Part shown: positions 1,023-56,119 of the stretch, piece by piece
How positions within the stretch are numbered: position 1 is the stretch's first letter
How the letters are laid out: each line of letters starts with the position of its first letter
Sequence record: PQ642266
Reading direction: 5' to 3' (one strand)
DNA from: Shigella phage SH-1
DNA: 64,000 nt
Made by a program: the position numbers and the translations under genes
Notes under the pieces: model-generated
Told to the model about the DNA's origin: nothing
The model's input: only the letters and a program-made list of their open reading frames with translations
Database searches by the model: none

Positions 1023-4000
1023 ATGGCCGAGATTAAAAGAAAGTTCAGAGCAGAAGACGGTCTGGACGCAGGTGGCGATAAAATAATCAACGTAGCTTTA
1101 GCTGATCGTACCGTAGGAACTGACGGTGTTAACGTTGATTACCTAATTCAAGAAAACACAGTTCAACAATACGATCCAACTCGTGGATATTTAAAAGATT
1201 TTGTAATCATTTATGATAACCGCTTTTGGGCTGCTATAAATGATATTCCAAAACCGGCAGGAACTTTTAATAGTGGACGCTGGAGAGCATTACGTACCGA
1301 TGCTAACTGGATTACAGTCTCATCTGGTTCATATCAATTAAAATCTGGTGAAGCTATTTCAGTTAACACCGCAGCTGGTAATGATATTACATTTACTTTG
1401 CCATCTACCCCAATTGATGGTGATACTATCGTTCTCCAAGATATTGGAGGAAAACCTGGAGTTAATCAAGTTTTAATTGTAGCTCCAGTGCAAAGTATTG
1501 TAAACTTCAGAGGCGAGCAAGTACGTTCAGTACTAATGACTCATCCAAAGTCGCAGTTAGTTTTAATTTTTAGTAATCGTCTGTGGCAAATGTATGTAGC
1601 TGATTATAGTAGAGAAGCTGTAGTTGTAACACCAGCGAATACTTATCAAGCGCAATCCAACGATTTTATCGTACGTAGATTTACTTCTGCTGCACCGATA
1701 AATATTAAACTTCCGAGATTTGCTAATCACGGCGATATTATTAATTTCGTCGATTTGGATAAATTAAATCCACTTTATCATACAATTGTTACTACATACG
1801 ATGAAACTACTTCAATACAAGAAGATGGAACTCATTCTATTGAAGGCCGTACATCGATTGACGGTTTCTTGATGTATGATGATAATGAAAAATTGTGGAG
1901 ATTGTTTGACGGGGATAATAAAGCACGTTTACGTATTATAACAACTAATTCAAATATTCGTCCAAATGAAGAAGTTATGGTATTTGGTGCGAATAACGGA
2001 ACAGCTCAGACAATTGAGCTTAAGCTTCCAACTAATATTTCTGTTGGTGATACTGTTAAAATTTCCATGAATTACATGAGAAAAGGGCAAACAGTTAAAA
2101 TCAAAGCTGCTGGTGAAGATAAAATTGCTTCTTCAGTTCAATTGCTGCAATTCCCAAAACGTTCAGAATATCCACCTGAAGCTGAATGGGTAACTGTTCA
2201 AGAATTAGTTTTTAACGGTGAAACTAATTATGTTCCAGTTTTAGAGCTTGCTTATATAGAAGATTCTGATGGAAAATATTGGGTTGTACAGCAAAACGTT
2301 CCAACCGTAGAAAGAGTTGATTCTTTAAATGATTCTACTAGAGCAAGATTAGGCGTAATTGCTTTAGCTACACAAGCTCAAGCTAACGTCGATTTAGAAA
2401 ATTCTCCACAAAAAGAATTAGCAATTACTCCAGAAACATTAGCTAATCGTACTGCTACAGAAACTCGCAGAGGTATCGCAAGAATAGCAACCACTGCCCA
2501 AGTGAATCAGAACACCACATTCTCTTTTGCTGATGATATTATCATCACTCCTAAAAAGCTAAATGAAAGAACTGCTACAGAAACTCGCAGAGGTGTTGCT
2601 GAAATTGCTACGCAACAGGAAACTAATGCAGGTACTGATGATACTACAATCATCACTCCTAAAAAGCTTCAAGCTCGTCAAGGTTCTGAATCATTATCTG
2701 GTATCGTAACTTTTGTATCTACCGCAGGAGCTACTCCAGCTTCTAGTCGTGAATTAAATGGTACAAACGTTTATAATAAAAACACTAATAATTTAGTTGT
2801 TTCGCCTAAAGCTCTGGATCAGTATAAAGCTACTCCAACACAGCAAGGTGCAGTAATTTTAGCAGTTGAAAGTGAAGTAATTGCTGGACAAAGCCAAGAA
2901 GGATGGGCAAATGCGGTTGTAACACCAGAAACGTTACATAAAAAGACATCAACTGATGGAAGAATTGGTTTAATTGAAATTGCTACGCAAAGTGAAGTTA
3001 ATACAGGAACTGATTATACTCGTGCAGTCACTCCTAAAACTTTAAATGACCGTATAGCAACTGAAAGTTTAAGTGGTATAGCTGAAATTGCTACACAAGT
3101 TGAATTCGACGCAGGCGTCGACGATACTCGTATCTCTACACCATTAAAAATTAAAACCAGATTTAATAGTACTGATCGTACTTCTGTTGTTGCTCTATCT
3201 GGATTAGTTGAATCAGGAACTCTCTGGGACCATTATACCCTTAATATTCTTGAAGCAAATGAGACACAGCGTGGTACACTTCGTGTAGCTACACAAGTTG
3301 AAGCTGCTGCAGGAACATTAGATAATGTTTTAATAACTCCTAAAAAGCTTTTAGGTACTAAATCTACTGAAGCACAGGAAGGTGTTATTAAAGTTGCAAC
3401 TCAGTCTGAAACTGTGACTGGAACGTCAGCAAATACTGCTGTATCTCCAAAAAATTTAAAATGGATTGTGCAGAGTGAACCTACTTGGGCAGCTACTACT
3501 GCGATAAGAGGCTTTGTTAAAACTTCATCTGGTTCAATTACATTCGTTGGTAATGATACAGTTGGTTCAACACAGTCGTTAGAATTATACGAGAAAAATA
3601 GCTATGCAGTATCACCATATGAATTAAACCGTGTACTCGCTAACTATTTGCCATTAAAAGCAAAAGCTGCTGACGCAAATTTATTAGATGGCCTAGATTC
3701 ATCTCAGTTCATTCGTAGGGACATTGCACAGACGGTTAATGGTTCACTAACCTTAACCCAACAAACGAATCTGAGTGCCCCTCTTGTATCATCTAGTACT
3801 GCTACGTTTGGCGGATCAGTTTCGGCAAACAGCACATTAACTATTTCTAATACTGGAACAGCAACTCGTCTGATTTTTGAGAAAGGACCTCAAACTGGAA
3901 CTAACCCAGCGCAGACGATGACTATCAGAGTTTGGGGAAATCAGTTTGGTGGCGGTTCAGATACAACACGTTCTACTGTATTTGAAGTTGGTGATGAAAC

Positions 4001-4900: not shown

Positions 4901-6016
4901 ATGGAAAAATTTATGGCAGAGTTTGGACAAGGATATGTCCAAACGCCATTTTTATCGGAAAGTAATTCAGTAAGATATAAAATAAGTATAGCGGGTTCTT
5001 GCCCGCTTTCTACCGCAGGACCATACGTTAAATTTCAAGATAATCCTGTTGGAAGTCAAACATTTAGCGCAGGACTTCATTTAAGAGTTTTTGACCCTTC
5101 CACCGGAGCATTAGTTGATAGTAAGTCATATGCTTTTTCTACTTCAAATGATACTACATCAGCTGCTTTTGTTAGTTTCATGAATTCTTTGGCGAATAAT
5201 AGACTTGTTGCTATATTAACTAACGGAAAGGTTAATTTTCCTCCTGAAGTAGTATCTTGGCTAAGAACCGCAGGAACGTCTGCTTTTCCATCTGATTCTG
5301 TATTGTCAAGATTTGACGTATCATATGCTGCTTTTTACACTTCTTCTAAAAGAGCTATTGCATTAGAGCATGTTAAATTAAGTAATAGAAAAAGCACAGA
5401 TGATTATCAAACTATTTTAGATGTTGTATTTGACAGTTTAGAAGACGTTGGAGCTACCGGATTTCCAAGAAGAACGTATGAAAGCGTTGATCAATTTATG
5501 TCGGCAGTTGGCGGAACTAATAATGAAATTGCGCGATTGCCAACTTCAGCTGCCATAAGTAAATTATCTGACTATAATTTAATTCCTGGTGATGTTCTTT
5601 ATCTTAAAGCTCAGTTATATGCTGATGCCGATTTACTTGCGCTTGGAACTACAAATATATCTATCCGTTTTTATAATGCATCGAATGGATATATTTCCTC
5701 GACACAAGCTGAGTTTACTGGGCAAGCTGGGTCTTGGGAATTAAAAGAAGATTATGTAGTTGTTCCAGAAAATGCAGTAGGATTTACGATATATGCACAA
5801 AGAACAGCACAAGCTGGTCAAGGTGGCATGAGAAATTTAAGCTTTTCTGAAGTGTCAAGAAATGGAGGTATTTCGAAACCTGCTGAATTTGGCGTCAACG
5901 GTATTCGAGTTAATTATATCTGTGAATCTGCTTCACCTCCTGATATAATGGTACTTCCTACACAAGCATCGTCTAAAACTGGTAAAGTGTTTGGGCAAGA
6001 ATTTAGAGAAGTTTAA
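4901..6016 (+). CDS. 35: long tail fibre hinge connector gp35
   Basis: 371 aa; matches T4 gp35 (MEKFMAEFGQGYVQTPFLSESNSVRYKISIAGSCPLSTAG...). Confidence 0.9.
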   Translation: MEKFMAEFGQGYVQTPFLSESNSVRYKISIAGSCPLSTAGPYVKFQDNPVGSQTFSAGLHLRVFDPSTGALVDSKSYAFSTSNDTTSAAFVSFMNSLANNRLVAILTNGKVNFPPEVVSWLRTAGTSAFPSDSVLSRFDVSYAAFYTSSKRAIALEHVKLSNRKSTDDYQTILDVVFDSLEDVGATGFPRRTYESVDQFMSAVGGTNNEIARLPTSAAISKLSDYNLIPGDVLYLKAQLYADADLLALGTTNISIRFYNASNGYISSTQAEFTGQAGSWELKEDYVVVPENAVGFTIYAQRTAQAGQGGMRNLSFSEVSRNGGISKPAEFGVNGIRVNYICESASPPDIMVLPTQASSKTGKVFGQEFREV

Positions 6017-40490: not shown

Positions 40491-40853
40491 TTAAAAGAAT
40501 TTAAATTTTTTCTTTGACCTTTTATTAAATGCATCTTGTAGTTGCATTGTAATACATTTTTCTACATGAGGAGCTAACTCAGCTTTTCTTTCTTGGTCAA
40601 GAACAGCAAAGTCCATTACGACTTTTCCATCAACCCAATCTAATTTTGTCACATACACAATGTGTGTAGAACCGTCTTCTAGTTTAATGACAATCTCCTG
40701 GATAACATTTTCCATAGCAGATTTAATTATCTTAAGAGATTCATTAAAAAGACGTTCTTTTCTTTCTTCTTCCCCCTCCGAAGAGGGGGATTCATCGATA
40801 ATTTCTAGATCTAAATCTAAATCATCTTTATTCATTAAATTCTTCCATATCAC
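40491..40853 (-). CDS. 40: gp40-like protein (120 aa)
   Basis: Between uvsX and 41 as T4 gene 40; start uncertain. Confidence 0.5.
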   Translation of the reverse strand: MIWKNLMNKDDLDLDLEIIDESPSSEGEEERKERLFNESLKIIKSAMENVIQEIVIKLEDGSTHIVYVTKLDWVDGKVVMDFAVLDQERKAELAPHVEKCITMQLQDAFNKRSKKKFKFF

Positions 40854-42009
40854 TTAACTGATCTAGGTCAGTTTCTAAATCAGCTGCTGATTTACTTTTA
40901 CTTTCTGGAGATTTAAATTTTTCAACCTTTGAGTTAATCAATTCATCAACTTCAGCTTCAACAATTTCATTACTATCAATAGCACCTAACTGATAAGCGC
41001 GTTTAATAGCATCTCGGAATGGTTGATGCTTAAATAAAGGACCCCAGAATGTAGTGCAATTGGTATCTTTTGCACGCCAAGATTTTTCTTCGCGAATCAT
41101 CTCGCCGGTTTCTTCATCAAGAAATTCACGAGCATACCAACCATTTTTAGGTTTTACTACAAATCCTAATTCAAGAGCCATATCTAACAATCCGGAATAA
41201 GGATCGATGCCACCGTCAAATTTAACATCAATAAAGAATTTACTTTTTTCTTTAACGGTACGAGATTTTTCTACATTTAGAACAAATTGATACCCCTGAA
41301 GATCAGAACCATCTTTAATCTGGCGCTTACCGATAATGAATACAGTATCAGCCGAATACATTACGCCTGTACCACCTGTCATCACGGTTTTACTAAACAT
41401 TTCAATTGTTTCAATTGTATGGTTAACCGCAACGCACGGAATGTTTTTAATACTAAAATAAGGAGTAACAATACGGAATAATGACTTCAGTGATTTAGCA
41501 CGAGTCATATCTGCCACGGATTTTTCATTCAAGGCATCTTCCGTTTCTTTCTTAGAAGCCATATTACCGATTGAGTCGATGAATACAATAACTTTTTCAC
41601 CACGCTCAATAGCTTCAAGCTGATTCACCATATCAATTTTCAGCTGTTCAACTGACTGAATTGGCGTATGAATTACTCGTTCCGGGTCAACTCCCATGGA
41701 TCGCAAATAAGCTGGAGTAATACCAAATTCGCTATCATAGAATAAACAAACCGCATCAGGATATTTGTTCAAATACGCCGCAACCATAGTCAAAGACATA
41801 TTTGATTTAAAGTGTTTAGAAGGACCTGCAAAAATAGTTAAACCAGACTGCATACCACCATCAATCGCGCCGGAAATAGCGATATTGAGCATTGGAATTT
41901 TTGTACGGATTACATCCTTTTCATTAAAGAATTTAGATGTAGTCAGTTCAGCAGTCATTTTAGAAGTGGAAGCTTTAATCAAACGGGATTTTAAATCTGC
42001 AATAGACAT
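40828..42009 (-). CDS. uvsX: RecA-like recombinase UvsX
   Basis: 393 aa; matches T4 UvsX (..DLKSRLIKASTSK.TAELT.SKFFNEKDV.RTKIPM.NIA.SG...). Confidence 0.9.
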   Translation of the reverse strand: MSIADLKSRLIKASTSKMTAELTTSKFFNEKDVIRTKIPMLNIAISGAIDGGMQSGLTIFAGPSKHFKSNMSLTMVAAYLNKYPDAVCLFYDSEFGITPAYLRSMGVDPERVIHTPIQSVEQLKIDMVNQLEAIERGEKVIVFIDSIGNMASKKETEDALNEKSVADMTRAKSLKSLFRIVTPYFSIKNIPCVAVNHTIETIEMFSKTVMTGGTGVMYSADTVFIIGKRQIKDGSDLQGYQFVLNVEKSRTVKEKSKFFIDVKFDGGIDPYSGLLDMALELGFVVKPKNGWYAREFLDEETGEMIREEKSWRAKDTNCTTFWGPLFKHQPFRDAIKRAYQLGAIDSNEIVEAEVDELINSKVEKFKSPESKSKSAADLETDLDQLSDMEEFNE

Positions 42010-42062
42010 TCATTTTTTCCATAGGCATCATTATATTTTCCTCACTGGTTAAAGATAGAGTA

Positions 42063-42089
42063 ATTATAACACAATAAATTTAGGCATTA
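42063..42089 (-). promoter_or_regulatory. possible MotA-type middle promoter for uvsX
   Basis: Minus strand aaTGCCTAAa (one mismatch to MotA box) then about 13 bp then TATAAT. Confidence 0.3.
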
Positions 42090-42929
42090 ATCAACTGCTA
42101 TTGGATGAATAGCATTAAACTTATGAAACACTTCTGATTTTTCTTTGCGCGAAACACACATGCGAAGAACCTTTAATGGCTCGTCTTCTTCACCCAACGA
42201 TTTTCGTTTTTCAATATTAGAAGTTTTCCAACGAGCTTGCTCTGGAAACTCTTTATTGATTTGCTCAAGAGCTCTATTATGTTTTGAATTACTACGAATT
42301 GAACTACATCCGCCTGGAGCTTGTGCTTTTCCAGACACAACCAGATATTTGAACAAAGCCAAATGCGGATAACCTTGGTTAATTAAATTGAGAAATGCAT
42401 ACATATCTTCGCATAAATCAATTTTTCCATACCCAATTTGTTCTGTAGTAAGTTTCCCGAGGTCATACCAAGTATTCGTGAATCCATATGAATTTTCACG
42501 ATAATTACCCCAAGATGAAGTAATTTTAAAAATAGGTAGACGAGCATGACCATGATAATACCCGCAATCCATGGCATCTTCAACGTATTGAATCAATTCA
42601 TAGAACTGTTCACGAGTTAACTGATTAATTTTATCTACGCAGCGACGATCATCTTTCTTTCGCATTGAACTCATACGAATAGTAGTATCATCATCAATCA
42701 TCCAAATTCGTTGACCTGCATACATATCAGTAATTGCTTTACGAGTTCCAGCAATTCCATTAACATCATCAGGAATAGTTATAATTTTAGCCCTAGACCC
42801 GTAAGCGTCATAATAAGCTTTTTCTTCATGTTCACGTACTACAATATGAGGTTCATAATCAGTCGGAAACATATCAAGGGCAGAAACTGCCCCTACGCGT
42901 TGATAGCTTGGAATTACGAATTGAATCAT
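42087..42929 (-). CDS. GT-A fold glycosyltransferase (DxD motif) at the T4 beta-gt locus
   Basis: 280 aa from ATG at 42929 (overlaps gene 42 stop); N-terminal FVIPSYQR and IWMIDDD DxD motif; not the T4 beta-gt sequence. Confidence 0.6.
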   Translation of the reverse strand: MIQFVIPSYQRVGAVSALDMFPTDYEPHIVVREHEEKAYYDAYGSRAKIITIPDDVNGIAGTRKAITDMYAGQRIWMIDDDTTIRMSSMRKKDDRRCVDKINQLTREQFYELIQYVEDAMDCGYYHGHARLPIFKITSSWGNYRENSYGFTNTWYDLGKLTTEQIGYGKIDLCEDMYAFLNLINQGYPHLALFKYLVVSGKAQAPGGCSSIRSNSKHNRALEQINKEFPEQARWKTSNIEKRKSLGEEDEPLKVLRMCVSRKEKSEVFHKFNAIHPIAVD

Positions 42930-43666
42930 TTCCACTCACCGTTATAATCTTTTTTCGCAATATGGGTTTCGCCAGTTTTCCACCAATGGTCAACCAAATA
43001 AAAATGACGGGAATACACATGAAGGCTCCCGACATTCCATATAATGGAACCTGCTTTATACTGACGAGTTGAATCACCTGCATTCAAATCAGATACTAAT
43101 TTATCTAGTACGTATTTTTGCCATGCATAATCATTACGGAATCCGAAGACCACGTCATTTGAACGCATGTTAACCACTGCATTAATTTTCTTATCACGAA
43201 TCAGGTACTGTACTGTATTAGTACACATGAAATCTGACATGCCATCTTTATTGTAGTCAAATTGCATGGATGGACGAGTATAAATCATGATACCACGTCG
43301 AGAATCAGGATTTTGACCAAGTTCAGCTAAACACATGTCATACTGGGCATAGTTATCTTCTGACCAGATGGCCCAACCATAATTCGAGTTAATTTCGCCT
43401 TTAGAAGATGCTACCTGCTGCCAAATCTTTGGTGTTTCACCTGGAATATCTTTAACAAACAGACTTTGAGACTTATACCATTCAAGTTCACGCTGAATGT
43501 ATTCATCATTAAGAGCGCCAAAAATAAAAGGTTCATCTGCTACAAATGATGCACCAATAATTTCAATAGTTTTAACCCCGGTTTTATCAATTACGAAATC
43601 TTTTTCCTTTAATGCAAGACCCAAATCAAGACGGATTTCTTCAACTGTCATATAATCGTTAATCAT
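42926..43666 (-). CDS. 42: dCMP hydroxymethylase gp42
   Basis: 246 aa; near-identical to T4 gp42 (..TVEEIRL.LGLALKEKDFV.DKTGVKTIEIIGASFVADEP...). Confidence 0.9.
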   Translation of the reverse strand: MINDYMTVEEIRLDLGLALKEKDFVIDKTGVKTIEIIGASFVADEPFIFGALNDEYIQRELEWYKSQSLFVKDIPGETPKIWQQVASSKGEINSNYGWAIWSEDNYAQYDMCLAELGQNPDSRRGIMIYTRPSMQFDYNKDGMSDFMCTNTVQYLIRDKKINAVVNMRSNDVVFGFRNDYAWQKYVLDKLVSDLNAGDSTRQYKAGSIIWNVGSLHVYSRHFYLVDHWWKTGETHIAKKDYNGEWK

Positions 43667-43819
43667 TTAAACCTCAATTGATGCATTCATATTTAATTTG
43701 TAACAGTAATAAACTCCAACCTATAATAAGTGGCGGAATCATAAGAGGAACTGTTACGCTATAATATATACTTATTATAATCATCAAGATTAAAAGCAAT
43801 ACTGCTAAAATTTTGCTTT

Positions 43820-44071
43820 TCATTCCTTCTCTCTGATGATAATTACTTGATTTTGCTGTACAGATTTTTTAGTTTCACCCGCAATTGACCAAATAAATGT
43901 AATAAACCAACCAATGATTGACCAGTTAAACAGTAAAGATGTGAAAAAGATTCCTACTGTCGATTTTGACCCACGCATCAAGGCGATGAACCATGGAAGC
44001 ATGTATATAATAATAGCCAACACGCCTGAAACTAAAACCATAAAAATTGAACCTGCTACTAAAGTTTCCAT
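43820..44071 (-). CDS. imm: superinfection immunity protein Imm
   Basis: 83 aa two-TM protein between 42 and 43. Confidence 0.7.
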   Translation of the reverse strand: METLVAGSIFMVLVSGVLAIIIYMLPWFIALMRGSKSTVGIFFTSLLFNWSIIGWFITFIWSIAGETKKSVQQNQVIIIREKE

Positions 44072-44469: not shown

Positions 44470-44706
44470 TCAAATACAAGTAGTAATTACTCCAGTAGTG
44501 CTTACACAGGTATTACCTAATTGAACACCCAGCGTTCCATTAGTATTCATATGAAGATTATCATCAATTTTTGTTGATACTTTACCATTCATGTGAATAA
44601 TAGTATTAGATTCAATCACATTCTGAGTGTCATTTTCAATATCAATAAATGGAACAGTTGCTAATGCAACTAAACACACTGCTAAACAACCATAAACAAT
44701 TTTCAT
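44470..44706 (-). CDS. small secreted protein (78 aa)
   Basis: MKIVYGCLAVCLVALATVPF signal-like N-terminus; ATG at 44706 with GGAGAATAAA. Confidence 0.45.
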   Translation of the reverse strand: MKIVYGCLAVCLVALATVPFIDIENDTQNVIESNTIIHMNGKVSTKIDDNLHMNTNGTLGVQLGNTCVSTTGVITTCI

Positions 44707-44740
44707 TTTATTCTCCAAATCCGTATCAGTTGATAGTTGT

Positions 44741-44770
44741 ATAGTACCATGGAAGAACGGGAATGTAAAC
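44741..44770 (-). promoter_or_regulatory. sigma70-type early promoter
   Basis: Minus strand GTTTACA, 18 bp, TGgTACTAT; shares leader sequence with promoters at 14908 and 18773. Confidence 0.6.
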
Positions 44771-44852
44771 AGTTTTGTGAAAAAATTTTTAATGAATTTA
44801 CAGGACCTAGAATCATCTATTTTTCCTAAGTATAGATTTATATTACTTGTAT

Positions 44853-44875
44853 GAAAAAGGGACCCGGAGGTCCCT
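44853..44875 (-). terminator. intrinsic terminator downstream of gene 43
   Basis: Minus strand AGGGACC-TCCG-GGTCCCT hairpin then TTTTT. Confidence 0.65.
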
Positions 44876-44887
44876 AGATTTATTCTA

Positions 44888-47584
44888 TCAGCCAAACAGG
44901 AAGTCTAACGAAGCTTTTTCTTCATAGTCCATACCCGCCGATTCACACATACCCGCAAGCGGTTTAACAAACGATTTTTGGAACAAAGTTGAGTAGTCAA
45001 TCCAAGATAGTACGTCAGAACGAATTTCTTTTGGAAGTTCCGTACCCGATGGCCAAGCAATACACTTGTCACCAAATGGATTTCCCTCACGTAACGGAAG
45101 AACCATTACCTTATTTCCATCCAAAATTGGAGCTACACCTAAACCGCTAACAGCTCGACGATAAGTTAGCACCCCACGAATATGGAACGGACATTTAAAT
45201 CCTGGCCAACCTTTATCATCATATTTCGCTATATCGTTCGCAGTTTTTACTTCAGCAATAACTTTATAATCAAGTTGACGATATTCTTTCTCAAAGTTCT
45301 TGTAGTATTCTTGGACAGACTCTTCGCCTTCCTGAAGAATACGACGAATACTTTCTTCGAGAGCTTCTTGTACTGCTTTTGGTGTTGAACTCTGCTGAGT
45401 TTCCATACCCATGATTTTTAGATGTGGTTCAGCAAATCGCTTATCTTCCATATCATAAACGTTCAGAGCATAACGTTTTTTCGCTTTCCAAAATCCACCA
45501 ACACCCTTTGAACCAAGTGGAGGACAAGAAATAGCTTCACGGTCCATATGCATCAGATGCTCGCGGTTATTCATATAATCACATAACTCACGATATGCAA
45601 CATCAATCATAGGTTCCATCTTTTTCTTACCAAACTGATTCATGAATTCAACTAAATCATTTTGTTCTTTAAAGCGGTCAAGACCTACTTTTTCAATTAC
45701 TTTATCTACACAAACATATACCGAATCAGTATCACCCGCGGCGATGAAATCTTCACCATCAGTTCCACATACTTTATTCAGATATTCATTAATTTTACGA
45801 GCAATCCACTGAATACCAACTTGACCAAAAATTGTGATAGCAGTAGCATTTCGCAAATCATAGTAACGGAAATGAATATTACCAAGAGCACCATAAAGAC
45901 TGTTAATAAGAATTTTACGGTTCAGCTGATTTGTGTTAGCAAGTGTAGCTGCTTTTTCACATTCTTCGATCAGACTATTGAGAACAGATTCAGTGTAATT
46001 CGATAATTCGTTTAAGAAATCATCACTGAACTTAACATATCGTTCAACTTCCGGTTTAGTTGAGCAAGACCCCGCGCCTTTCATAATAATCTTTTTAATA
46101 GCTTCGGCATTCATTTCTTCAGCGAACATTTTCTTTTTCCAATCTTTACGCTGGAAAAATACTTTAGCGATTTCCTTTGGAATGATACCTTCTTGGTGCT
46201 TATCATACATCCATCCATTCGGAGAGCAAGAATATTCATCACTTGGCTTAGGAGCTGTTCCTGCGATATATTCATGAATTGGATGAACTTTAAACTGCCC
46301 ACGAATAGTCTCAGGACTAATGTTAACCTGACGAATAATGCTAGGATACAGAGATGTCAAGTCAAAACTCATAATGTATCGACGAGCAATCGGTTTAGGT
46401 TCAAATACAAATGCACCTGGAAAACTCTGTTTAACGTGCGAACCTTGTTGAGGAATAACCTTATGTTCACCTTTCAATGAGTTAAAAATAATAGCATCCC
46501 AAGTTTTAATAGGACTCATTACACCAGAAAAAGGCATTTTAGCGTAATAAGACATACTTAAAACTAGATCGATAAACCCACGAATTTTATCAATTGCTTG
46601 AACTGATTCTACGTCAATGATGTTATAACTAATGTATCGTTGATGATTAGTCTCACGAAGTTTATTAATAGGACCATCGTACGGCAATTTACCTTTTTTG
46701 GTTTCGTGCTGAGCAACTGATTCCAAAGAGAATGATGGCAAATTAGTAAATGCGAATTTCTTGTACAAATCTAAATAATCAAGAATAGACACGCCATCAA
46801 TAGAATAAATTTCTTTGCTACCGTACATATTTTGAATTAGTTTAGATTTTACTCGACCGATTGGGGAGAAGCGTTTCATACTGCGTTCGCCCAGAACCAT
46901 TTTAACGCGATTCATGATATACGGAACGTCAAATCCCTCAATATTCCAACCGGTAAAAATAGCAGGTCGTTTCTGTTCCCAGAGATTAATATATTCCATG
47001 AGCATATCACGCTCATTATCGAATGGCATATAAATTACTCGGTCAAGAATTTCTTGAGGAACTTCATCACCACCTTCACAGTCAAGCTTAGCAGCTAACT
47101 TTGCATCCCATTTTGATACTGAACCGTACATTGAATTCAACAAATCAAAGACGTAAAAACGGTCGTCAATTGAATCATAATGAGTGATAGCATCAATTTC
47201 ATATTCTGCTTTCATTGGGTCAGGAAATTTATCGCCAGTAACCTCAATGTCACAGTTAGCTACACGAACAAATTTTCGGTCATAAACAATTTCTGAACCA
47301 TATGTATCACTGATATAAGCGAGTTTAAAATCGTTCATACCGAGAGCTTCGAGACCGATGTCTTCCATTCGTTTCATCCAGTCTCGTGCATCTTTCATTG
47401 ATGGAAATTTTTGAGGAGCGCAATTTTTACCGTAAATGTCTTTGTACTTTGACTCTTCCTTACAATGCCTAAACATAGTCGGAAGATATTCTACTTCACG
47501 AGTACGTTCCTTTCCGTTTTCATCAATATAACGCTCAACAATGTTATTTCCGACTGTTTCGATAGAGATATAAAATTCTTTCAT
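44888..47584 (-). CDS. 43: DNA polymerase gp43 (family B)
   Basis: 898 aa, same length as T4 gp43; exonuclease and polymerase motifs. Confidence 0.95.
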   Translation of the reverse strand: MKEFYISIETVGNNIVERYIDENGKERTREVEYLPTMFRHCKEESKYKDIYGKNCAPQKFPSMKDARDWMKRMEDIGLEALGMNDFKLAYISDTYGSEIVYDRKFVRVANCDIEVTGDKFPDPMKAEYEIDAITHYDSIDDRFYVFDLLNSMYGSVSKWDAKLAAKLDCEGGDEVPQEILDRVIYMPFDNERDMLMEYINLWEQKRPAIFTGWNIEGFDVPYIMNRVKMVLGERSMKRFSPIGRVKSKLIQNMYGSKEIYSIDGVSILDYLDLYKKFAFTNLPSFSLESVAQHETKKGKLPYDGPINKLRETNHQRYISYNIIDVESVQAIDKIRGFIDLVLSMSYYAKMPFSGVMSPIKTWDAIIFNSLKGEHKVIPQQGSHVKQSFPGAFVFEPKPIARRYIMSFDLTSLYPSIIRQVNISPETIRGQFKVHPIHEYIAGTAPKPSDEYSCSPNGWMYDKHQEGIIPKEIAKVFFQRKDWKKKMFAEEMNAEAIKKIIMKGAGSCSTKPEVERYVKFSDDFLNELSNYTESVLNSLIEECEKAATLANTNQLNRKILINSLYGALGNIHFRYYDLRNATAITIFGQVGIQWIARKINEYLNKVCGTDGEDFIAAGDTDSVYVCVDKVIEKVGLDRFKEQNDLVEFMNQFGKKKMEPMIDVAYRELCDYMNNREHLMHMDREAISCPPLGSKGVGGFWKAKKRYALNVYDMEDKRFAEPHLKIMGMETQQSSTPKAVQEALEESIRRILQEGEESVQEYYKNFEKEYRQLDYKVIAEVKTANDIAKYDDKGWPGFKCPFHIRGVLTYRRAVSGLGVAPILDGNKVMVLPLREGNPFGDKCIAWPSGTELPKEIRSDVLSWIDYSTLFQKSFVKPLAGMCESAGMDYEEKASLDFLFG

Positions 47585-53123: not shown

Positions 53124-54139
53124 TGTGTTGCCTCTACATATAACTGATTTGCATATTGAATAAGTGCTTCGCGATCAGAATCAGTGATGTCTGGAATTGC
53201 ATTAATGTATTCTTCCATCAACGTCTGAAGAGATTGAACTTCAACTTCTTCACTATCATCTGACTCGACAGAGTTATCAATCTTTGACACAACTCGTAAT
53301 GAATGCACAACTTTTTCTAGTTCAGATTCGAACTTCGTTAGATTTTTGTCTACTTCAGTTACTATAACACGTACTGATAGATTTGTAAAATCTTTATAGT
53401 CAATTTTTCCCTTAAATGGATATTGAATTCGACGATGCCAGGTAGTGTTGTTTGGAATAAATTCCATTCGTTCTGTTTCTGTATCAAACATCCAGAACCC
53501 GCGAGGGTCATTCTCGTCACCTGCAGTTAGTGTCCATGGTGTCCCAATATATCTGACGTTAGCAGCCTCAGAGATAGTATGGAAGTGACCAGACCACACC
53601 TCTTTATAAGTCTTAAGGAAATCAGGTTCAAGACCGTGAGATTTCATTCCTTTATAAAAATAAAATCCATTCAGCTCCCAGTGACCGACACAAAAAGAAG
53701 CAGATGAAGTTTTGATGTGTTCAAGAATTTCACCAGTATTTTCTTCGCACATCCAAGGAATTAAATCAATCAAACATCCGTCAAAATCTACTGTAGTAGG
53801 CTTATCATATACTTTAACATTAGGATATTTAGCCAAAAGCTCAGTAGAAGCATTTGGATGCATTACATTTTTATAGTGGAGATCGTGATTTCCTACAATA
53901 GTATGTAATGTGATTCCAGCGGCATCAAGCATTTGAACTATTTCACGGGCAAACTCCATAGTTTTATGCGTGATCGCTTTTCGTACATCAAAAATATCAC
54001 CGTATTGAATCCATACAGTAATTCCATTTTTCTTAGAATATTCTATCGCTTGCTTAATTCCATCAATTTGAATACCGCGAATCCATTCATCATCAGCTTT
54101 AACGCCTAAATGCCAATCACCCAAGTTTAGTATTTTCAT
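53120..54139 (-). CDS. 47: recombination endonuclease subunit gp47 (Mre11-like)
   Basis: 339 aa; phosphoesterase motifs (NLGDWH, GDIFD, GNHD). Confidence 0.9.
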   Translation of the reverse strand: MKILNLGDWHLGVKADDEWIRGIQIDGIKQAIEYSKKNGITVWIQYGDIFDVRKAITHKTMEFAREIVQMLDAAGITLHTIVGNHDLHYKNVMHPNASTELLAKYPNVKVYDKPTTVDFDGCLIDLIPWMCEENTGEILEHIKTSSASFCVGHWELNGFYFYKGMKSHGLEPDFLKTYKEVWSGHFHTISEAANVRYIGTPWTLTAGDENDPRGFWMFDTETERMEFIPNNTTWHRRIQYPFKGKIDYKDFTNLSVRVIVTEVDKNLTKFESELEKVVHSLRVVSKIDNSVESDDSEEVEVQSLQTLMEEYINAIPDITDSDREALIQYANQLYVEATQ

Positions 54140-54740
54140 GGTGTCTTTTCCATCCTAATTTAGCTGCTTTTGAAACTAGTTCTTTAATTTTTCCTTTTGT
54201 CCATTCAGGACCAGGAGGTTCATGACATAACATTTGCTTAACTCCGTTATTATACCATTTTTTACCTTTATTATGTGATGAAGCTTTAAATTTATTTGAC
54301 CTTCCTTTTACATAACCTTCTGGAATATACGGTAAAAAGGCAGATTTTCCTGTTAATGGGTCATGTGAATGTATGTTTCCTTTACAATTATGAGAACCAT
54401 ATAATGGATGATTTTGTCCTTTAATATCTCTTCCAAATGAACCTTTTGGAGCAGCATATGACATATTAAAGAATAATGGATTTTTAACCGCATCATGCAA
54501 ACGTTGATAATATAGCTCGCATTTAATAGCTTCTTCGCGTGTATCAAATTCATCTAAAATGCATGAATCAAATAAATGTGGGTTATTTGAAAGTTCTTCA
54601 TTATAAATTTTCTTATACTTTTTAGATAAAACTGATCCATGATATCCGGCTAAATGCCTGTCTAAAGATGTAGATCCAATATAAAAAGGAGGAAGTTTAT
54701 CTCCACTATATATTGTTAAATAAGTTATATATTTTTTCAT
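54117..54740 (-). CDS. GIY-YIG homing endonuclease (Seg-like)
   Basis: 207 aa; GIY-YIG catalytic motifs: ITYLTIY, FYIGST, R in LDRHLAG, E in REEAIKCE, N in FFNMS; GQNHPLYGSH; overlaps gene 47 start by 23 nt. Confidence 0.7.
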   Translation of the reverse strand: MKKYITYLTIYSGDKLPPFYIGSTSLDRHLAGYHGSVLSKKYKKIYNEELSNNPHLFDSCILDEFDTREEAIKCELYYQRLHDAVKNPLFFNMSYAAPKGSFGRDIKGQNHPLYGSHNCKGNIHSHDPLTGKSAFLPYIPEGYVKGRSNKFKASSHNKGKKWYNNGVKQMLCHEPPGPEWTKGKIKELVSKAAKLGWKRHHENTKLG

Positions 54741-54916: not shown

Positions 54917-56119
54917 TTATTTTGTAATAATGTCAAACTGTTCTTTAAAGCAGAAGCTTGAATCTTGATGCTGATACAAAAATTCATAAGCTTTTTCACG
55001 TTCACGGTCATAAAGAGCTCGGTCAGATGACAGTTCTTTAATACGTTCAAATGTTGATTCCATGTCATTTTCATCAAACCAAACGATGCCGCTATCATGA
55101 GAAATTAACGGAGTATTATCAACACGGAATTTTAAATTTTCGCCAGTAGATTTCCAAAATACTGGAATTGTTCCACATGCACCAAGCTCGAGATGAGTAT
55201 ATTCTAAAGAACGTTGTAGATATTTTTTATCTAATTTACTCAGCTGATAACCAAATCCGGATTTACTCATGCGTTCAAGCATTTCGCTATTTACATAACG
55301 GTCGAGAATTTGCGTCGGCAAATTAGGAGCAATTTTAATTTGGTCTACTTGATGAAGACGATAATACTCGTATGGAATTCCTTTTTCTTTAATAGGAATG
55401 AACGCTGGAGAACGTTCCAGACCTTCCATAATAGTGCTTAGTCCTGCAGGTTTAAGATGTTTTTCGTGAAAATCAAACATCTGATAAAAACCTTTCCATG
55501 TAGTAGTACGACCAATCCAACGGTTGATATTCATGTTAATTTCAGAAACATCTTTCCAGTAGGTTGATCGAACTTTCGCAATATCCATAGGAGGCTGAAA
55601 GTTATATACGATCGGTGCTTCTTCAATATCATCAAACAGAGAAACAGTTTCCGGATACCATTCTTTCATCAAAACTTTATTAAAGTCACCATTATCAGAA
55701 TGGCTAAAAATAACATCAGCTCGACGAACAGTTTCTTCTAATCCCAAATTTCGGCGCAAAGAAAGAGAAGAATGGTCATGCTGATAAACTACAACACGAA
55801 CCGAAGGTTTAATGTTATCAATAATTTTTTTATAGTTATTAATTGTGTCTTCTTCAACTGAAGTAGCAGGAACTGAATTGATAACTAGAATATCACAATC
55901 ATTTACCAGCTTAAGTGTTTTATCGTATTCTTTTGCCAATAAAACTGGAATTGAAAATGACTTATAATCATGCGCGCAATTACGAGTAAATGATTTATCT
56001 TTAGCATAAACCAAAGTTACTTCATGACCATTTTTAATAAACCAATCACGCTGCTCAAGAGAAAATTTAGTTACACCGCAACCTTCAAGACCTCGAGCCA
56101 TAAAAATACATACTTTCAT
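54917..56119 (-). CDS. a-gt: DNA alpha-glucosyltransferase
   Basis: 400 aa; matches T4 alpha-gt N-terminus (M.ICIFMARGLEGCGVTKFSLEQRDWFIKNGHEVTLVYAKDKSF). Confidence 0.9.
   Translation of the reverse strand: MKVCIFMARGLEGCGVTKFSLEQRDWFIKNGHEVTLVYAKDKSFTRNCAHDYKSFSIPVLLAKEYDKTLKLVNDCDILVINSVPATSVEEDTINNYKKIIDNIKPSVRVVVYQHDHSSLSLRRNLGLEETVRRADVIFSHSDNGDFNKVLMKEWYPETVSLFDDIEEAPIVYNFQPPMDIAKVRSTYWKDVSEINMNINRWIGRTTTWKGFYQMFDFHEKHLKPAGLSTIMEGLERSPAFIPIKEKGIPYEYYRLHQVDQIKIAPNLPTQILDRYVNSEMLERMSKSGFGYQLSKLDKKYLQRSLEYTHLELGACGTIPVFWKSTGENLKFRVDNTPLISHDSGIVWFDENDMESTFERIKELSSDRALYDREREKAYEFLYQHQDSSFCFKEQFDIITK

Follow-up and report, generated by a model that had tools for sequence, protein, structure and literature searches.

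Between uvsX and gene 42, phage T4 carries segA and a 351-aa beta-glucosyltransferase (b-gt), and we asked which enzyme occupies the same position in Shigella phage SH-1 and what sugar pattern it would give the phage DNA. The window analyzed here is a 64,000-nt stretch of sequence record PQ642266. A 24-kb stretch of it has 99.2% identity to Shigella phage SH-2 and ∼97% to PP01 and ime09, by which its source is identified as an ordinary Tequatrovirus. The gene of interest, at 42087..42929 on the minus strand, encodes 280 aa followed by a TAA stop. On its upstream side lies gene 42 (42926..43666, minus strand), the dCMP hydroxymethylase that makes the hm-dCMP precursor, an ORF assigned by its thymidylate-synthase family domain (PF00303, E = 4e-16) and by the gp42 label in syntenic records. 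Its downstream neighbor and synteny marker is uvsX (40828..42009, minus strand), an ORF named after the annotation of a 99.6%-identical stretch in Escherichia phage vB_EcoM_SA21RB, and a 77-nt spacer (42010..42086) separates the two. In T4, segA adjoins b-gt and lies between it and uvsX, whereas the window lacks segA: a T4 segA query against the 64 kb matched nothing. The initial annotation had described a 280-aa protein with the segments FVIPSYQR and IWMIDDD between uvsX and gene 42, and each of these elements is present in the sequence, the two segments at residues 4 to 11 and 75 to 81.

In a program-made ORF list, the longest reading frame of this gene spans 42087..42935 (minus strand), with a GTG start and 282 aa; an ATG at 42929..42927, two codons inside the GTG, gives 280 aa. 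The ATG at 42929 is a better start than the GTG at 42935, because a Shine-Dalgarno-like hexamer, GGTGAG (42935..42940, minus strand; read from the sequence), lies within the end of gene 42 only 5 nt before the ATG and because the orthologues in SA21RB and in three T2 records are annotated at 843 nt, equal to the length in the window counted from the ATG. The hexamer is kept in T2 and T6. As the initial annotation had observed, the ATG overlaps the stop of gene 42: it shares two bases with the TGA at 42928..42926 to form ATGA, an arrangement that suggests cotranscription and translational coupling with gene 42. For promoters at this locus we rely on the near-identical SA21RB record, whose annotation places a sigma-70-like promoter in the spacer before uvsX and a middle promoter of the T4 type ahead of gene 42; our own promoter scan of 41800..43900 returned 10 sites against 10.0 expected, no excess. 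Within codons 12 to 18 of the gene there is also a GC-rich hairpin, TAGGGGCAG-TTT-CTGCCCTTG (42895..42875, minus strand), followed by a T-rich stretch and identical in T2 and T6. We do not take it for a terminator, as the terminator scan gave 1 site against 0.9 expected from shuffled sequences, which is chance level.

Does the gene nevertheless descend from T4 beta-gt? The initial annotation had placed a GT-A (DxD) glycosyltransferase, and with it probably a sugar pattern unlike that of T4, where T4 encodes beta-gt, and had made this proposal depend on there being no strong homology to the T4 enzyme. BLASTP of the window protein against T4 beta-gt detected no similarity (best E = 3.3), and tblastn with a T4 b-gt query found no homologue anywhere in the 64-kb window. 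We therefore rule out T4 beta-gt homology on the basis of both searches. Nor does the protein match PF09198, the Pfam family of T4 b-gt; a Pfam scan at E values up to 1 gives only TAGT (TET-associated glycosyltransferase) and one subthreshold match.

The protein instead aligns over its full 280 aa with the beta-glucosyl-HMC-alpha-glucosyltransferase (ba-gt, also ggt or TAGT) of phages T2 and T6, with amino acid identities in direct alignments of 98% for three independent T2 records and 97% for T6, and it is 99% identical to the copy labelled ba-gt in SA21RB. PHROG 842, itself named beta-glucosyl-HMC-alpha-glucosyltransferase, matches residues 1 to 275 with E = 2e-88. Pfam PF20691 (TAGT) scores 38.8 bits, above its gathering cutoff of 27.5 bits, and aligns residues 3 to 207 with profile positions 2 to 205 of 205; the same domain is carried by most of the 11 cluster-representative homologues returned by a deep protein search. 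The genomic context agrees, with the position between gene 42 and uvsX being the same in the window, T2, and T6. The length of 280 aa, the ATGA overlap, and a partner alpha-gt are likewise as in T2 and T6, and no beta-gt homologue accompanies them within the window. We therefore regard the gene, as far as sequence and synteny can tell, as almost certainly the orthologue of T2/T6 ba-gt. The initial annotation had suggested a second sugar like that of T2 and T6 and is borne out by this full-length identity, though it had not recognized that this is the very enzyme of those phages, in its normal and common position. Earlier work has already described the gene and where it lies, the GT-A fold, and the product of the enzyme; ba-gt of SH-1 is thus a known enzyme and not a new one.

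The gene is also widespread. A tblastn search of GenBank phages found 689 records with a ba-gt homologue, 472 of them at ≥95% amino acid identity, and this breadth, like the PHROG 842 match, marks a conserved gene and not a chance ORF. About 200 further homologues, at 60 to 80% identity, come from Klebsiella, Enterobacter, Citrobacter, and Salmonella phages. At the nucleotide level, a search with the 2.2 kb surrounding the gene hit 752 phage records in GenBank, most of them Tevenvirinae (Escherichia, Shigella, Klebsiella, and Yersinia phages), with Shigella phage SH-2 (99.7%) and the Tequatrovirus SA21RB (99.6%) as best matches. TAGT has been described as syntenic with T4 beta-GT (PMC13390438), and in a survey of 753 glycosyltransferase-bearing phages the vast majority pair an alpha-GT or beta-GT with TAGT; the arrangement in the window is therefore the usual one, from which T4 departs. 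GenBank labels for the gene are inconsistent. Some matching records carry beta-glucosyl-HMC-alpha-glucosyl-transferase, and others have hypothetical protein, glucosyl transferase, beta-glucosyltransferase (SH7), or the gene name b-gt (PP01 and T2 record LC348380). Many records still call ba-gt a hypothetical protein or a beta-glucosyltransferase. The identification is of practical use in annotation and phage therapy; there is little in it as discovery. Labels of neighboring genes can be affected too: in T2 record AP018813 they are grossly wrong, with major capsid protein at the position of the gp41 helicase and baseplate hub subunit at that of gp40.

The acceptor for such an enzyme would be supplied by the a-gt gene at 54917..56119 (minus strand), a 400-aa DNA alpha-glucosyltransferase that makes alpha-glucosyl-hmC and shares 91% identity with T4 a-gt across 400 aa (PF11440, E = 3e-235), in keeping with the mention of an alpha-gt in the initial annotation. 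In T2 and T6, alpha-gt glucosylates hmC first and ba-gt then adds a beta-1,6-linked glucose to give gentiobiosyl-hmC (PMC6024577; PMC11078745; bioRxiv 10.64898/2026.02.25.707755). By analogy, gp42 of the window phage would make hydroxymethyl-dCMP, which, once phosphorylated, would replace C when it is built into DNA; alpha-gt would then add glucose in alpha linkage to most hmC residues, and ba-gt would take a second glucose from host UDP-glucose and attach it beta-1,6 to the first, yielding gentiobiosyl-hmC. The enzyme would thus be inverting, because the donor is alpha-linked and the product beta-linked. T4 b-gt and ba-gt share the UDP-glucose donor, the beta linkage, and phage DNA as the target (PMC6024577, PMC13216743), as well as the slot downstream of gene 42. 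They differ in length (351 versus 280 aa), in acceptor (hmC for b-gt, the glucose of alpha-glucosyl-hmC for ba-gt), and in fold, T4 b-gt being GT-B (PDB 1JG7; PMC13216743) and the window enzyme predicted to be GT-A.

Because the gene sits in the beta-gt slot, it could also be read as a primary glucosyltransferase, a nonhomologous replacement of T4 beta-gt that puts a single glucose straight onto hmC. Some phages indeed carry solitary TAGT homologues with neither alpha- nor beta-GT (PMC13216743), and some members of the family may act on bare hmC. For the window enzyme we consider this highly improbable in view of its 97 to 98% identity to the T2/T6 enzyme, whose deletion from T6 removes the second sugar only and leaves DNA with alpha-glucosyl-hmC alone, intact (PMC11078745). 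Natural phages with the same gene pair argue against it as well: in ten Tequatroviruses with alpha-GT and TAGT, high-performance liquid chromatography/mass spectrometry (HPLC/MS) detected hmC together with its alpha-glucosyl and alpha-gentiobiosyl forms and did not detect beta-glucosyl-hmC (PMC13390438). Under the favored assignment as ba-gt, the alpha-gt/ba-gt pair predicts DNA of the same kind in the window phage, with hmC, alpha-glucosyl-hmC, and gentiobiosyl-hmC and without beta-glucosyl-hmC.

We examined the fold and active site in a predicted structure (mean pLDDT, 72; pTM, 0.73), in which the N-terminal half reaches 83 to 95 and two loops fall below 50, and in an alignment of the window protein with eight homologues drawn from a large protein collection and ranging from 77% down to 33% identity; at nine sequences this alignment is shallow, which limits confidence in the model. 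The model consists of alternating strands and helices, as in a nucleotide-binding domain, and the DDD of D79 to D81 directly follows the strand at residues 74 to 77 (strand 4). The canonical position of the DxD motif in GT-A enzymes is after strand 4. With a single Rossmann-like domain, the acidic motif in this place, and no sign of the two-domain GT-B arrangement in the predicted structure, which matches those of GT-A enzymes, ba-gt of the window is, according to the model, a GT-A-fold glycosyltransferase. An AlphaFold3 model of T6 TAGT is likewise GT-A, sister to GT2 (PMC13216743). A PDB sequence search for a ba-gt relative gave chance matches only (E ≥ 0.9), so that no structure of the family is detectable by sequence. 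Membership in GT2 itself was rejected, with no match to Glycos_transf_2 (PF00535) at E values up to 1, and the relation is at the level of fold only. Cellular GT-A enzymes of the GT2/GT27 type (TarP, 6H1J; BcsA; GalNAc-T1) have 8 to 10% sequence identity to ba-gt and differ from it in acceptor, which for ba-gt is a sugar on duplex DNA.

None of the 41 invariant columns of the family alignment is altered in the window protein, among them P7, S8, Y9, R11, D79 to D81, D175, G206-G207, and R212. Drawing on general knowledge of GT-A enzymes, we assign D79 to D81, a DxD-type motif, the presumptive role of holding a divalent metal and the UDP pyrophosphate; dependence on a divalent metal is suggested because these residues are invariant down to 33% identity. 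From the same general knowledge, the invariant D175, part of an ED pair (residues 174-175), is inferred to be a candidate catalytic base. Only 5 to 8 substitutions separate the protein from those of T2 and T6, and none of them falls at an invariant column. Four distinguish the window protein from those of both phages (K92, I101, K226, and V267 in place of R, V, R, and A) and are conservative, implying no functional difference. These counts bear on whether the enzyme might transfer another sugar, such as arabinose or a hexosamine, or use an acceptor other than that of the T2/T6 enzyme. Donor specificity of GT-A enzymes can shift with few substitutions, and arabinose is used by related T4-like Mosigvirus phages (PMC6024577, PMC13390438), but the arabinosylating phages belong to another genus and start from another precursor, 5-hydroxy-dC (PMC13390438), and with so few changes from T2 and T6, all outside the invariant columns, a different sugar or acceptor is scarcely credible here. 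We found nothing that contradicts the ba-gt assignment.

How much of the DNA would carry the second glucose is a separate matter. Gentiobiosyl-hmC makes up ∼5% of hmC in T2 and ∼72% in T6, with ∼25% of hmC bare (PMC6024577; PMC11078745; bioRxiv 10.64898/2026.02.25.707755), and in the Durham phages the fraction is ∼40% or ∼67% with near-identical enzymes (PMC13390438). The fraction differs widely among carriers of near-identical enzymes, and the extent of di-glucosylation in the window phage cannot be read from sequence. The gene might be present and yet inactive or weak, leaving DNA like that of T2, mostly alpha-monoglucosyl-hmC with few di-glucosyl residues. T2 itself makes this conceivable, since its gene is 98% identical and its gentiobiosyl-hmC nevertheless so scarce (PMC6024577), and two public T6 records with apparent lesions in ba-gt suggest that phages tolerate its loss in the laboratory. 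We consider a weak or inactive enzyme unlikely, because the window copy is intact, with every invariant column retained, including the full DDD and R11, which is changed only in T2. Moreover, gentiobiosyl-hmC amounts to about two-thirds in 7 of the 10 natural Tequatroviruses analyzed (PMC13390438).

Residue 11 deserves separate mention. It is encoded at 42897..42899 and is Arg in the window, in T6, and in all other homologues examined down to 33% identity, while all three T2 records aligned have His. R11 belongs to the PSYQR segment that follows strand 1; in GT-A enzymes this part of the protein makes contact with the nucleotide. The exact 31-residue N terminus bearing H11 occurs in 8 of the 681 phage records that contain the segment, namely, seven T2 records and SV76, a T2-sized near-twin; this count of exact matches excludes any H11 record with another change nearby. 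We used GenBank phages for the comparison because a scan of IMG/VR by codon context yielded too few contigs (0 of the T2 type with H11, 3 of the common type with R11). It is possible, and we offer it tentatively from the sequence comparison, that small differences in ba-gt set the amount of second glucose and that H11 could explain the contrast between ∼5% gentiobiosyl-hmC in T2 and ∼72% in T6, an observation that is 60 years old. In the literature examined we found no mention of the His/Arg difference at this residue. If this reading of H11 is true, the window phage, which has R11 and the complete DDD, is predicted to be T6-like and heavily di-glucosylated.

Two of the T6 records depart from the family in other ways. 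In MH550421, codon 10 of ba-gt is changed from CAG to a TAG amber (4951..4953 of the extracted locus), and the gene is annotated as 261 aa from Met20. In AP018814, one Asp of the invariant DDD is missing (IWMIDDTT), giving 279 aa (2135..2974 of the extracted locus). Either lesion could have arisen by mutation in a laboratory stock or be an error of sequencing.

The sugar pattern also bears on the encounter with host defenses. The initial annotation had supposed that a pattern different from that of T4 would alter susceptibility to modification-dependent systems, and published work on gentiobiosyl DNA agrees: wild-type T6 DNA resists the Brig1 glycosylase in vitro and T6 DNA from a ba-gt deletion is more sensitive (PMC11078745), while gentiobiosyl DNA is still cleaved by GmrSD-type enzymes (PMC13216743, PMC13390438). 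Similarly, DNA from a T6 ba-gt deletion loses glucose to the deglucosylating enzyme BapA and wild-type T6 DNA does not (bioRxiv 10.64898/2026.02.25.707755). Given the predicted sugar pattern, DNA of the window phage would therefore be expected to resist Brig1, to escape deglucosylation by BapA, and to be cleaved by GmrSD/BrxU-type enzymes (PMC11078745; bioRxiv 10.64898/2026.02.25.707755; PMC13216743; PMC13390438).

Two further ORFs near these genes differ from the T4 arrangement. Between imm.1 and gene 43, the ORF at 44470..44895 (minus strand) has no match other than PHROGs of unknown function (phrog_4189, E = 2e-26, with the C-terminal 78 residues aligned), at a spot where T4 annotates no gene; an internal ATG is probably its true start, because SA21RB annotates a gene of 348 bases there. 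Between gene 47 and alpha-gt, a 207-aa ORF (54117..54740, minus strand) shares 23 bases with the end of gene 47 and matches PHROG 10820, HNH endonuclease (E = 2e-93), with a GIY-YIG Pfam domain below threshold. At this spot T4 has nothing beyond the 46-aa gene 47.1, and its mobB flanks a-gt on the opposite side; the ORF in the window probably represents the insertion of a mobile homing endonuclease.
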